DNA from: a virus
Taxonomy: Duplodnaviria > Caudoviricetes
IMG/VR virus record: IMGVR_UViG_3300013426_000023
Location: 32,001-96,000 of that record
Length of the DNA stretch: 64,000 nucleotides
Direction: 5' to 3' (one strand)
A program made the position numbers and the translations under genes. Below are positions 35,240-42,399 of this stretch, one piece after another (positions within the stretch are counted from its first letter, which is position 1; the number at the start of each line of letters is the position of its first letter). The notes under the pieces are model-generated. The model searched no databases. It had not been told where the DNA came from and saw only the letters and a program-made list of their open reading frames with translations.

Positions 35240-35521
35240 TTACAGTGTATATTTGTCCTTTACACCATTTCCAACTACCATTAAGCAAGGTACCCATGTT
35301 GCACCATCATCAATGCTGCATTCAGCATATTGCAAGTCTGCTGCCTGACCTCCAGCTTCAATCTTTGCCATAGCTGGCTTTGAGATGTAGCCTGTGATTT
35401 CACCGCATACAAAGAAGAAACTATTAGGTTTCTTAGGGTTTTCCCTGATGTGCAAAGAATCGTTGTTAATTGACTTCAAAGATTCAACACTCATTCTGTT
35501 TCTGCTAATAATTGCATTCAT
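35240..35521 (-). CDS. First gene of the leftward (early) block, hypothetical
   Basis: 93 aa, own terminator, next to the divergence point. Confidence 0.75.
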   Translation of the reverse strand: MNAIISRNRMSVESLKSINNDSLHIRENPKKPNSFFFVCGEITGYISKPAMAKIEAGGQAADLQYAECSIDDGATWVPCLMVVGNGVKDKYTL

Positions 35522-35553
35522 AGTCTAATGTTTTAAATGTTAATAATGTTAAT

Positions 35554-35615
35554 GGTCACAGGGGATTATCCCAAAGTGCCGAAGGCTAGGGGGGGTTTGG
35601 GGTGGTTATCCCACA
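35554..35615. other. G-rich structured element at the divergence point (candidate early promoter, origin or terminus signal)
   Basis: GGGATTATCCC palindrome, GCC-GAA-GGC hairpin, G7 run and a second GGTTATCCCA copy in an otherwise very AT-rich context. Confidence 0.4.
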
Positions 35616-35673
35616 TTCATGTAACTCCAATAAAATTTCAAAAAAAATAAAAAATAATTTTTTCACTTATTTA

Positions 35674-35705
35674 TTTGATAATTTAAAATTTTATTTGTAC
35701 CTTTG
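35674..35705 (+). promoter_or_regulatory. Bacteroidota sigma-A-type promoter
   Basis: TTTG-N20-TACCTTTG. Confidence 0.75.
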
Positions 35706-35711
35706 CATTTA

Positions 35712-36042
35712 CAAGGAACATATAAGTACTTGCAGAGATTAATCAACTCTATAAACCATAGATTGACCCAATATAGTAGGATTATATTTGAATGCAGCAA
35801 ACTGAGAGAATAAAGGGTATCAGTAAAGGCTACAGGTAAGCATTCCTAGAGATAACAAGAGTGAAAAACAATAATATATAAACGGGATATAAGACTACTA
35901 TATGGAAGCAAGCCATAATGCTGGCAGGGTCTCTTTATATAGTATAGATAATGATTGATTTATTAATGCAAGGAATTAGGATTAATATATTAGAATATGA
36001 ATGGAGTAAAAAGAGTGGTAATTAAGTTTATTACTCTTTTTT
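35712..36042 (+). ncRNA. Putative structured, rod-like non-coding RNA
   Basis: Lies between a promoter and a terminator; the ATG ORFs found are at most 18 codons; seven nested helices pair the 5' and 3' halves (see findings). Confidence 0.6.
36008..36042 (+). terminator. Intrinsic terminator
   Basis: AAAAAGAGTGGTAA-TTAAGT-TTATTACTCTTTTTTT. Confidence 0.7.
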
Positions 36043-36050
36043 GTTTTACA

Positions 36051-36082
36051 CTTGTAAGAATAAAAAATTATTTATATCTTTG
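36051..36082 (+). promoter_or_regulatory. Bacteroidota-type promoter for the late block
   Basis: CTTG-N20-TATCTTTG, 26 nt before ATG 36108. Confidence 0.7.
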
Positions 36083-36107
36083 CAGTAAAATTTAAATAAT
36101 ATTATTT

Positions 36108-39100
36108 ATGTGGAATAATTTAAGTATACAAGATAAAGCTTCATATATAAGAGAAGCAGTAGCAAATGGTATATATAATAGAAGAGATATTATCTCTAAC
36201 TATAATTCATTTGCCAAGGGTGGCTATAAGCCTTCAGATAAAGTAAAGAAAGATATAGCTACTTGGGAAGGTTCTTCAATGAAAACAAACAGAAGTTTTG
36301 AAGCTGAGGCAAACGACTTTAATAAGTATTTACCTAAAGGAGCTTTAAACAAATTAACACAATCACAATTAGATGCACTATATTCTTATTCCTATAATGT
36401 AGGAGCAGGAAATTTCAATAAAAGAGTAGTACCTGTACTTACACAATATTTGAATGGTAAAGCTACTAAAGAAGATGTGCAAAAGTCTATGTGGGCTTCA
36501 AAGGATAATGAATTAAGAGGTCTTACTAGAAGAAGAAATTGGGAGAGAGAAGGATTTGGTGGTAATTATAGAACCATGTTTACTGGTACAGGAGGAACAC
36601 CTAATTATTATGGTTATAGAGATTCAAGAATACCTAGTTCAGATTCTACTAATCAAGTAGCACAATTTGATGATAATGTCACTAAACCCACAGACTTTAT
36701 ATCAAGTGTAAATGGATTTACTTTAGACCAAATAAATGAAGCTATGAATAATAGTACATATAAGCCTATTAATAATGTAGAAAATCAAGAATCTTCTCTT
36801 CCTCCTACAGGAACAGCGTTTACTATACCTTCATTAAATACAATGTATAATCCTATAGAATCAGCTAAACCAGATTATAGTTATACACAATCAATACTTA
36901 CAGATTTTGATAATACGCTGTATGGCAATGATATAAATGACGAGGATAATATGTTTGATAAAGGTGGTAATCTATTTTTTGTTGGAGGACAACAACAAAG
37001 AATAACTGAAGCAAAACCTTATATATTTAAAAATGGAAAACTTGTAGCTAATCCTCAATATCATCAACCTGATAGAGGGGTAGCTTTACCATTGGGTTTT
37101 CCTTCAATTTTTAATGCAAATAAAGACTATTTACCTGACCCATTATTTAATATATTAACGTTAGGTAGGAATATATATAATATAGATTATAAAGGACTTA
37201 AAGAAGCATATAAAGTATTAAAACAAAAATACACAAAAAAAGGTTTTAATTTAAGCAAGGAATATCCAGATTGGGAATCAGCTTTAAAAAAGGTATTTGA
37301 TGAACTTGGAGACTTTTTAATTCCTGGACTTAAATATGGTGGTAGTTTAAATAAATTTGAAGATGGTGGAAATGAAAATGAGGATAAAGGTTATAACTAT
37401 GTAGATGCAGATAATCTAAGACATAAAGATTTTTTAAATCTTATCAATGTAGATGGTAAATTAATGGATAGTGATAACAATACTTATAATTTACAAGCAT
37501 TAGATAGAGAACATACTCCTGTAATACAAGGTACTAATATGTTAGCTAAGAAAATGGCAGAGGACATGGCTTATGCTAATGCTAAAAAATATTTTGACTC
37601 TAATACTACTATTGATTTTATTAATGCTGCTACATTAGGCTTATTAAATAGAGGTTCTATATCACAAGATGCTAGATTAATAAAAGATGCTTATAATACA
37701 GCTTTTGGTGATATGACATATGACCAATTAATTAATAGTGCAACATTAGGAAATGAAGGTATATTTGAAAATCCTTTATATAACACATTAATAGATTTTG
37801 CTATTCCTTTAGGAACTTATGGTACTAATCAATTATTAAATACAAATAAAGCTAAAAATTTAATAGCATCGTTAGTAACAAAAAACTCATTACTTCCTAA
37901 GAATTTTTCCCCTAATTATCTTTCAATTAATATAAATAATGGAGATAGTGATTTAATTAAAAATATTCATAATAAAAATTTAGCTGAAAAATTAAGGACT
38001 GCTTATTTAACTAGATTTGGAGAAAATAAAGTATTGAATTTAAATAATAATTATTTTAGAAGTTCAAAACAATTACCTACAATAATGGAAGAATTTAATC
38101 CTTATCAAAATTATCCTGTAGGAGAGTATACATCTAAGGAGATACAAGATTATTATAGTCAAGTGATGTTACCTCTAATGAAAAGATATAATATATCTGC
38201 TCCAAAGAAAGTAAAGCCAGCAATTATTACAGTACCTGATAATATTAATAAAAATATAAGAGGATGGTACAATCCTTGGTTAGATATTCCATTTTTAAGA
38301 GCTGTGGGAATAGATGGTAAATTAACAAATAGTATAAAAAATGGTTTATTTAATTCTACATATCTACACGAGGCAGCTTCTCATGGTACTGATGAATTAT
38401 TGGATAATCTTAATTTAATGTCAAAATATAAATTTGAATCATTTCTACCAAATGATTATGTATTTCATCCAAAAATAAGTGCTTCAAAATTAGGTGAAGA
38501 ATTTAGAGCAACAATGAATGAGGTAAGACAATCATTGTTAGAAACACGTAAAGAATTTAATGGCTTAGATTATTTTTATCCACAAGGAAAGGATTTAGAA
38601 AAAGCAATAGATGATATAGGTATTAATTTATTAATGAATAAAATGGGTATTACAAATGCATACGGTGAAGATTATTTTAATGCTTGGAATAATTTAAAGA
38701 ATAGAGCTAACAATGGTAATTTAAGAGACATACAAAATTTAATTAATTTTGAAAATAATATTAAGGATGCTTTTAAATATCTTCCTGCTATTGGAACAGG
38801 TGTTATAGGTACAACAGCCTTAAATAATAAGGAAAAAGCATTAGGAGGACCATTAAATGCTTATGCAGGGGGAGGAATCTTAGATATAATAAGTAATTTC
38901 TTTACAGACAATAAACAATCTCAAATTAAACCAAAAGTATATATAAGTTTAAGTGGACAACATTTTAAAACAGCACATGAAGCTGCTATAGATAATTTTA
39001 ACTTACAAAAAGGTAGAGGAAAATATGCTCCAAAGAATATAAATTATATTGTAAAAGCAGGTGATAGTTTATGGAATATTGCTAGAACAAATAATACTAC

Positions 39101-40446: not shown

Positions 40447-40478
40447 TTTGGTAGTATAAAATATAATGTTTATCTTTG
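40447..40478 (+). promoter_or_regulatory. Bacteroidota sigma-A-type promoter
   Basis: TTTG-N20-TATCTTTG. Confidence 0.75.
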
Positions 40479-40496
40479 CAAAGTAATTTAGTGAAT

Positions 40497-42348: not shown

Positions 42349-42380
42349 CTTGCAAAATATAAATATTTGTATTATCTTTG
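42349..42380 (+). promoter_or_regulatory. Bacteroidota-type promoter upstream of tRNA-Leu
   Basis: CTTG-N20-TATCTTTG. Confidence 0.7.
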
Positions 42381-42399
42381 CAGCAGTTAAATAATTAAT

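Follow-up and report, generated by a model that had tools for sequence, protein, structure and literature searches.

What is encoded at the point where the genes of a crAss-like phage change strand, in a stretch that a promoter and a terminator enclose and that holds no obvious gene? CrAss-like phages dominate the human gut virome, the Steigviridae being among the most abundant human-gut viruses, and their takeover of Bacteroidales hosts is poorly understood. The window analysed here is a stretch of 64,000 nt that corresponds to bases 32001-96000 of a 106,063-bp virus record, which was judged complete. Its leftward genes end at 35521 and its rightward genes begin at 36108, and the rightward block contains a muralytic protein (1439 aa), six tRNAs, the portal and further structural genes. 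The portal is 57-62% identical to the portals of all Steigviridae/Asinivirinae genera, an identity from which we place the phage as a separate lineage within that group. A preliminary description had proposed that positions 35712-36042 encode a stand-alone, rod-shaped structured RNA of no recognised family. Our analysis indicates that the feature is almost certainly a genuine, uncatalogued non-coding RNA gene; whether it stands alone depends on the lineage.

Promoter, terminator and coding potential

The promoter that had been described upstream of the RNA, at 35674-35705 on the plus strand, was found to be an exact match to the Bacteroidota-type pattern TTTG-N20-TAnnTTTG (TTTG, 20 nt, TACCTTTG), with the −33 TTTG at 35674-35677 and the −7 box TACCTTTGCA at 35698-35707. 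From its position the 5′ end of the RNA would lie near 35711-35714, and in the alignment the spacing from promoter to RNA was unchanged in all homologous loci. Most Bacteroidales rRNA operons share this −7 box, which is present in 71 of the 101 Bacteroidales 16S leaders that were fetched. Promoters of the host type TAnnTTTGCA also precede phage genes on both strands.

The terminator was likewise recovered, as a terminator-like hairpin on the plus strand at 36008-36042 with a 14-bp stem followed by U6. Because this stem has just two G-C pairs, a generic terminator scan omitted the hairpin. It recurs with altered stem bases in the related locus L014. Shortly after it, at 36051-36084, lies a second host-type promoter (plus strand; −7 box TATCTTTGCA at 36075-36084) that serves the 1439-aa muralytic gene at 36108 and is kept in L014 as well. 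Further promoters of this kind were found along the rightward block at 40471, 42373, 48006 and 61687.

Between the promoter and the end of the terminator, only tiny open reading frames had been reported, and in 35712-36042 these are just 20-46 aa long under code 11. Reading TAG as Q, or using code 4 (TGA=W), opened no credible ORF in the RNA region. No reading frame is conserved across the homologues described below, since the frames are broken by stops, by an indel of 4 nt close to the 5′ end and by a 1-nt shift in register (GGGTCTCTTTATAT versus GGGGTCTCTTATAC), and a small-protein gene was rejected for these reasons. ARAGORN found no tRNA, tmRNA or tRNA-like module in the region, which dismisses a tmRNA or tRNA-like RNA. 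A reverse transcriptase (PF00078), which would have suggested a link to retron or DRT-type non-coding RNAs, is absent from the genome.

Directly to the left of the RNA promoter, at 35560-35625, this genome of 28% G+C carries a G-rich island (GGGGGGGTTTGGGGTGG...). Comparable islands occur at the corresponding position in L014 and in phage cr128_1, and in phage cr85_1 right where the record begins. Possible roles of the island are those of an early promoter (for the virion RNAP), a terminus or an origin. The 93-aa gene upstream of the RNA, used as a synteny anchor, gave no tblastn match in 50,697 phage records.

Fold, homologues and covariation of the RNA

The minimum free energy (MFE) folds from RNAfold were compared with dinucleotide shuffles for 35712-36042 and for 35725-35975. 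The whole unit folded better than its shuffled controls (z = −4.33), as did the part without the terminator (z = −4.46), and a fold as good was reached by 0/100 and 0/200 shuffles, respectively. The opposite strand gave z = −2.93. All helices that had been listed by eye were present in the MFE folds of both intervals. According to the alignments, the body of the RNA covers about 280 nt of the plus strand (35712-35990), and conservation stops near 35990, past a purine-rich tail (GGAATTAGGATTAATA). After a 5′ leader, the overall shape is that of seven stacked helices (P1-P7) with small loops, a branched head and the purine-rich 3′ tail.

At the base of the rod, the 5′ strands of P1, P2 and P3 (35729-35734, 35737-35745 and 35748-35753) pair in nested order with the 3′ strands of P3, P2 and P1 (35943-35948, 35952-35960 and 35967-35972) in the MFE fold. 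These helices comprise the described pairs CTTGCA 35729/TGCAAG 35967, AATCAA/TTGATT in the P2 region and TCTATA 35748/TATAGA 35943, and they are backed by the re-pairing of the basal strands reported below. P4 (ATAGA 35758-35762 with TTTAT 35934-35938) is almost invariant and shows no compensatory change, and P5 (GACCC 35765-35769 with GGGTC 35927-35931) has changed on both sides; the block CAUAGAU...GGGUCUCUUUAUAU around the two is nearly invariant. In P6 (35771-35779 with 35895-35903) the window has ATATAGTAG/CTACTATAT, and AU, UA, GC and CG pairs occur across lineages: the 5′ strand reads TGTAATCAG, CATGGTAAG, ATGCTATAG or TATAAATAG in other lineages, and the 3′ strand matches each of them. 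The GA/GA internal loop (35780-81 and 35893-94) is conserved and separates P6 from P7 (35782-35789 with 35885-35892; TTATATTT/GGATATAA), in which two U-G pairs are invariant.

The head of the RNA starts with a distal hairpin domain (35790-35845). Here the inner arm P8 (GAATGC 35790/GCATTC 35840) encloses P9 (AGC/GCT) and P10 (CTGA/TCAG), as had been described. The domain also has an A-rich loop and invariant sequence (AGGCTACAGGYAAG; AGGCUACAGGYAAG). Both-side changes were seen in 5/6 pairs of P8 and 4/5 pairs of P10. It is followed by a conserved, purine-rich unpaired strand of 39 nt (35846-35884; AGAGATAA...AATAATATATAAAC), and the centre of the RNA is a multi-branch junction in which only one side has an open strand. 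Within the family, conservation peaks in the hairpin GCAAGCC-AURAU-GCUGGC at 35908-35925 (helix 11), which shows zero variation, adjoins GGG(G)UCUCUU(U)AUA and supplied the search word that retrieved the family. The RNA also contains a near-invariant 8-nt palindrome, AAGUACUU.

For part of the base, RNAalifold proposed a local hairpin, AGAG/CUCU (35735-35752), that replaces P2/P3 and covaries in lineages L122 and L007; its formation would compete with that of the rod, and the rod is restored in every lineage. No pseudoknots were detected in the RNA; an all-against-all column scan for them was swamped by phylogenetic correlation among the six lineages. Short direct repeats of about 9 nt (ACAAGGAAC/GCAAGGAAT) lie at the ends of the RNA, at 35712-35720 and 35968-35976; in all long forms of the RNA both become CTGTTGGAGTA/CTGTTGGAATA together (CAAGGAA versus GUUGGAR).

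Searching for homologues with blastn in 50,697 phage records returned a single genome, that of the uncultured phage cr85_1 (Kahnovirus oralis, Steigviridae; MT774390.1, our locus L001), which holds a longer copy of the RNA at 128-483. GenBank mis-annotates this RNA as the start of a protein: the 3′ third of the copy is included in the hypothetical-protein CDS QOR59440.1 (400-1086), whose start ATG falls within the invariant hairpin. In the window, the same frame meets a stop after 9 codons. The true start of the cr85_1 CDS is likely the ATG at 508, which would make the GenBank protein too long by 36 residues.

An invariant 20-mer retrieved 17 IMG/VR loci, and a 21-mer with one free position matched 37 metagenome loci, 34 of which contain the RNA. 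A gapped pattern of three blocks added one extra locus. Patterns of 14-15 nt gave mostly chance matches in IMG/VR and gained only L122 and pieces of two known contigs. The exact 21-mer was absent from the genomes of 185,579 species of bacteria and archaea (one genome each). Altogether, the whole RNA was found in 52 loci representing 40 distinct sequences, and fragments were found in three further loci. Where the source was labelled, nearly all loci were human-gut crAss-like contigs, mostly of 50-106 kb.

The homologues fall into six lineages and range from about 255 to 350 nt. The window clade has the short form of about 255 nt, and the cr85 clade, L007, L122, L267 and L263/L278 have long forms of 320-350 nt. 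In the long forms, an insertion of about 75 nt with two hairpins follows the distal hairpin, between positions 35846 and 35847 of the window, and the 5′ leader forms a hairpin of its own. A covariance model (CM R1) built on 17 representatives scored 223-395 bits in 40/40 loci searched, and on the window it matched 35724-35976 with 223 bits. With Rfam 15 at gathering thresholds, the window yielded only six tRNAs. At a permissive E<=10, the region 35500-36150 and the cr85_1 copy gave scattered hits of 11-20 bits, far under gathering, and the RNA matched no family, in line with the preliminary impression of an unrecognised one. A full-text literature search returned no description of this RNA, nor of any non-tRNA RNA gene in crAss-like phages.

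Covariation was tested on an alignment of 17 sequences (A3) with a structure of 63 pairs. Standard pairs filled 96.2% of the cells, and 25/63 pairs had changed on both sides (105 cells), values that were reached by 0/500 shuffles. When the 3′ partners were slid by 1-3 columns as a control, pairing fell to 35-45% with at most 4 double-change pairs. The hairpins of the long-form insertion covary too (helices 8-10), and throughout A3 the unpaired loops are more conserved than the stems. The pairing predicted for P4, P9 and P13, which show little or no variation, is unproven. Since P1-P3 lie outside the column alignment, their 5′ and 3′ basal strands were instead joined and refolded. The basal rod re-paired with differing sequences in 12/12 representatives, covering every lineage, with z-values of −1.4 to −5.2 against shuffled 3′ strands; in L272, for instance, P1 is doubly compensated from CAGGAU/AUUCUG to CAAGAU/AUCUUG.

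G-U cells outnumber A-C cells by 80 to 10, and therefore it is the RNA of the plus strand, in the sense of the promoter, that folds. Judged by these comparisons, the RNA structure is under selection. Together with the strand-specific G-U pairs and the conserved promoter, the covariation bears out the earlier proposal of a phage-encoded structured RNA. Around 40 natural variants and clear covariation make it amenable to structure probing, cryo-EM and pull-downs.

Setting and possible modes of action

The RNA gene is present once in the 106-kb genome. In 16/16 loci examined, it is the first element behind the first rightward promoter, at the strand switch, and in 10/10 loci checked a tRNA array follows 3′ of it on the same strand, at a distance of 0.1-5 kb (5.0 kb in the window, 0.7-4.1 kb in most loci and 118 nt in L267). 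Between RNA and array lie 0-3 ORFs that differ among lineages; the first ORF after the RNA encodes 1439, 690, 228, 192, 133, 87 or 84-85 aa depending on the lineage. This varying class of the first downstream ORF led us to reject a gene-specific riboswitch or cis-regulator. In L267 (9104-9629), tRNA-Gln begins 118 nt past the RNA with no ORF of 70 aa or more in between, and this layout of RNA plus tRNA array may be the ancestral arrangement.

A full consensus promoter precedes the first tRNA by about 100-130 nt in 9/10 loci checked. The exception is L267, which has −7 boxes before the tRNA without a canonical −33 TTTG, the nearer box being about 15 nt away. The −7 boxes of the tRNA-array promoters are identical to the host rRNA −7 box. 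Promoters of this kind (TACCTTTGCA or TATCTTTGCA with −33 TTTG) are located at 40447-40480 and 42373-42382 in the window, and likewise in L001, L002, L010, L249 and L266.

The claim that the RNA is a stand-alone unit holds for the window and L014, the only lineages examined in which a terminator and a fresh promoter follow the RNA. It does not hold for most relatives, in which the terminator is missing and an ORF begins about 5-40 nt past the RNA tail.

Of the modes of action that we considered, we tentatively prefer one in which the RNA is an abundant, stable molecule that acts in trans, a reading to which we assign a little less than an even chance. We favour it because the core of the RNA is intact even where its own terminator insulates it (window and L014), because separate promoters serve the tRNA array and the later genes, and because the neighbouring ORFs are interchangeable between lineages. 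The single-copy state of the gene is a further point in its favour. On the other side, most lineages lack the terminator, so that the RNA is formally a 5′ leader of about 300 nt of the first rightward ORF, and it always keeps its place right after the first rightward promoter.

As to expression level, processing, partner and biological role, we infer the following scheme. Host RNA polymerase would transcribe the RNA, in quantity, from the consensus Bacteroidota promoter. The transcript of about 255-345 nt folds as a long interrupted rod (P1-P7) that carries a branched head with invariant unpaired nucleotides. These invariant loops, the GA/GA loop and the conserved G-U pairs might bind a host or phage protein or the RNA's own copies. 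The rod might serve as a stabilising or processing stalk and allow the RNA to be excised from longer transcripts where a terminator is absent. The gene would then be one unit of a phage 'stable-RNA module' that consists of a strong promoter, the RNA, 0-3 ORFs and a separately promoted tRNA array.

The main rival is a cis-acting leader of the rightward late/structural and tRNA unit, which we regard as possible but considerably less probable. Such a leader could work through RNA-based processive antitermination or against Rho, in the manner of HK022 put or rRNA leaders, or it could be an RNase III-type processing or stabilising stalk for the first mRNA. It would account for the RNA being transcribed first after the first rightward promoter in 16/16 loci and for the lineages, most of the family, that run into an ORF without a terminator. 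Moreover, the terminator directly 3′ of the RNA in the window is the layout expected for a read-through test, the slot of the RNA holds another conserved non-coding stretch in phages crAss001 and cr128_1, and, as with rRNA leaders, the RNA lies directly behind an rrn-like promoter and heads a long unit with stable RNAs.

However, the window and L014 have a new promoter beyond the terminator, from which polymerases could reach the late genes without having transcribed the RNA. The tRNA array is separately promoted, and more promoters are spread along the block. The host boxA word GTTCTTTGAA, present in 61/101 Bacteroidales 16S leaders, is missing from the phage RNA, in which the closest word is GGGTCTCTTTATAT, and nhmmer found no similarity between the phage RNA and host rrn leaders. 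The RNA, at 255-345 nt, is also several times larger than put or EAR elements.

A self-assembling RNA-only particle of the ROOL or GOLLD kind, made alongside the phage tRNAs, is an unlikely alternative. ROOL and GOLLD are phage and prophage RNAs of unknown function that often lie near tRNA islands and form homo-oligomeric cages (PMC12286853). Like them, our RNA is phage-encoded, has an elaborate fold supported by covariation and no associated protein, and lies in the neighbourhood of a tRNA island (within 0.1-5 kb of the array in all ten loci checked). The palindrome AAGUACUU and the invariant loops could make intermolecular contacts. In contrast, neither the ROOL (RF03087) nor the GOLLD (RF01998) model matched, and sequence or structure similarity was not found. 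ROOL and GOLLD exceed 500-800 nt and contain multiple pseudoknots, whereas this RNA is two to three times smaller (255-345 nt), has a rod and a branched head with no pseudoknot detected, and is restricted to one human-gut Steigviridae-like group. They are the nearest known things to it, sharing its ecology but not its sequence, size or fold.

The preliminary description had also likened the interrupted rod to 6S RNA, that is, to a decoy that mimics an open promoter and sequesters the host sigma-A RNAP at the early/late switch. This idea found no support, and we consider it quite improbable. Of the other roles put forward there, that of a protein sponge or of an anti-defence RNA may apply. The two RNAs share an interrupted rod made of 5′ and 3′ halves, a large unpaired central region and a strong promoter, and the gene is sited between early and late blocks, going by the module timing in crAss001 (PMC8375218); in the relatives, the RNA may be co-transcribed with the downstream ORF. 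But 6S (RF00013), 6S-Flavo (RF01685) and all other families were unmatched at E<=10. Where 6S has a two-sided central bubble, this RNA has a branched junction whose open strand of 39 nt lies on one side, and relatives carry the 75-nt insertion right there. Only one word in the RNA resembles TAnnTTTG (35783-35790); it is paired and lacks conservation. As the promoters of the phage's own genes are of the host type, and host RNAP is believed to carry out middle and late transcription in crAss001 (PMC8375218), a sigma-A decoy would be self-defeating.

Even less credit is given to the idea that the RNA resembles Y RNAs in serving a Ro60/TROVE protein, the host Rsr, as partner or decoy. In Y RNAs, the 5′ and 3′ ends form a long stem with a highly conserved bulged helix, and the ends of this RNA, too, pair into a long stem with such a helix (P4-P5). 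A TROVE model matched the Bacteroides thetaiotaomicron genome that was used as a control, and one of the early genes of crAss001, gp96, codes for a Ro60-like TROVE protein (PMC8375218). Yet TROVE (PF05731) is absent from the genome studied here and from those of cr85_1, cr128_1, L014 and L007. We rejected the link to TROVE/Ro, as none of the examined genomes that carry the RNA has a TROVE gene. Y RNA families were unmatched in Rfam at E<=10, and the RNA is without the tRNA-like module, a further difference from Y RNA/YrlA.

Equally remote is an element that acts as DNA (an origin, a cruciform or a MITE-like inverted repeat) or a primer transcript of an origin at the switch: the cumulative GC skew is lowest at 34-36 kb of the window, a G-rich island lies just upstream and the long inverted repeat is flanked by direct repeats of about 9 nt, but the skew evidence is confounded because skew and gene orientation switch at the same point, and the excess of G-U over A-C, the better fold of the plus strand, loops more conserved than covarying stems and the single copy all speak against it. 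A mobile inverted repeat was dismissed on the same single copy per genome and covarying stems with G-U pairs. When the two longest conserved words were used to look for antisense targets, they occurred only once in the window on either strand.

A second non-coding stretch in crAss001 and the wider family

Another conserved non-coding stretch of about 330 nt occupies the same slot in crAss001 (MH675552; 667-998) and in cr128_1 (about 1360-1720). The synteny is the same: a G-rich island, an A/T tract, a TAnnTTTG promoter, some 300 nt free of credible genes, small ORFs and the tRNA array. Neither CM R1 nor blastn revealed homology between the window RNA and the crAss001-type stretch, and running CM R1 with filters off on the crAss001 junction gave junk alignments with deletions of 240-255 positions. 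The stretch has a higher G+C, and folded as a single sequence it does not outperform its shuffles (z = +0.5). It probably represents a further RNA gene, one that CM R1 fails to recognise. That the slot holds a different sequence in these phages could, on the other hand, point to a cis role.

The window RNA itself is a new family within a known kind, the large orphan phage non-coding RNAs, and at 255 nt a compact addition to the few of these that are tied to tRNA islands. A conserved RNA that is driven by an rRNA-like promoter beside a tRNA island adds an RNA player to the biology of crAss-like phages. An RNA gene at the strand-switch position may be general in the crAss-like group. More speculatively, Steigviridae phages might each carry a highly expressed, structured RNA gene that heads the tRNA island, with the window family and the crAss001 type as two forms. 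Such RNAs might then make up a new class of phage stable RNA and work together with the tRNA array on the translation or RNA-processing machinery of the host. We think this wider proposal possible though improbable. The action might, for example, be particle assembly or titration of a host factor, modes that have been suspected for ROOL and GOLLD but not proven.

Several further observations concern the crAss001 locus. The promoter of the slot, TATGTTTGCA at 651-660, overlaps the start of gp2. The stretches of crAss001 and cr128_1 share long identical blocks, such as ATGAGAAAAGGTTGAGGGTAAA and GCTCTTGGGG. A gap of about 900 nt without an annotated gene (95965-96869) lies directly downstream of the TROVE gene gp96 and could harbour a Y-RNA-like partner encoded by the phage. 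Finally, the non-coding stretch of crAss001 is followed by gp3, a 50-aa product annotated as a 'putative beta-fructosidase'.
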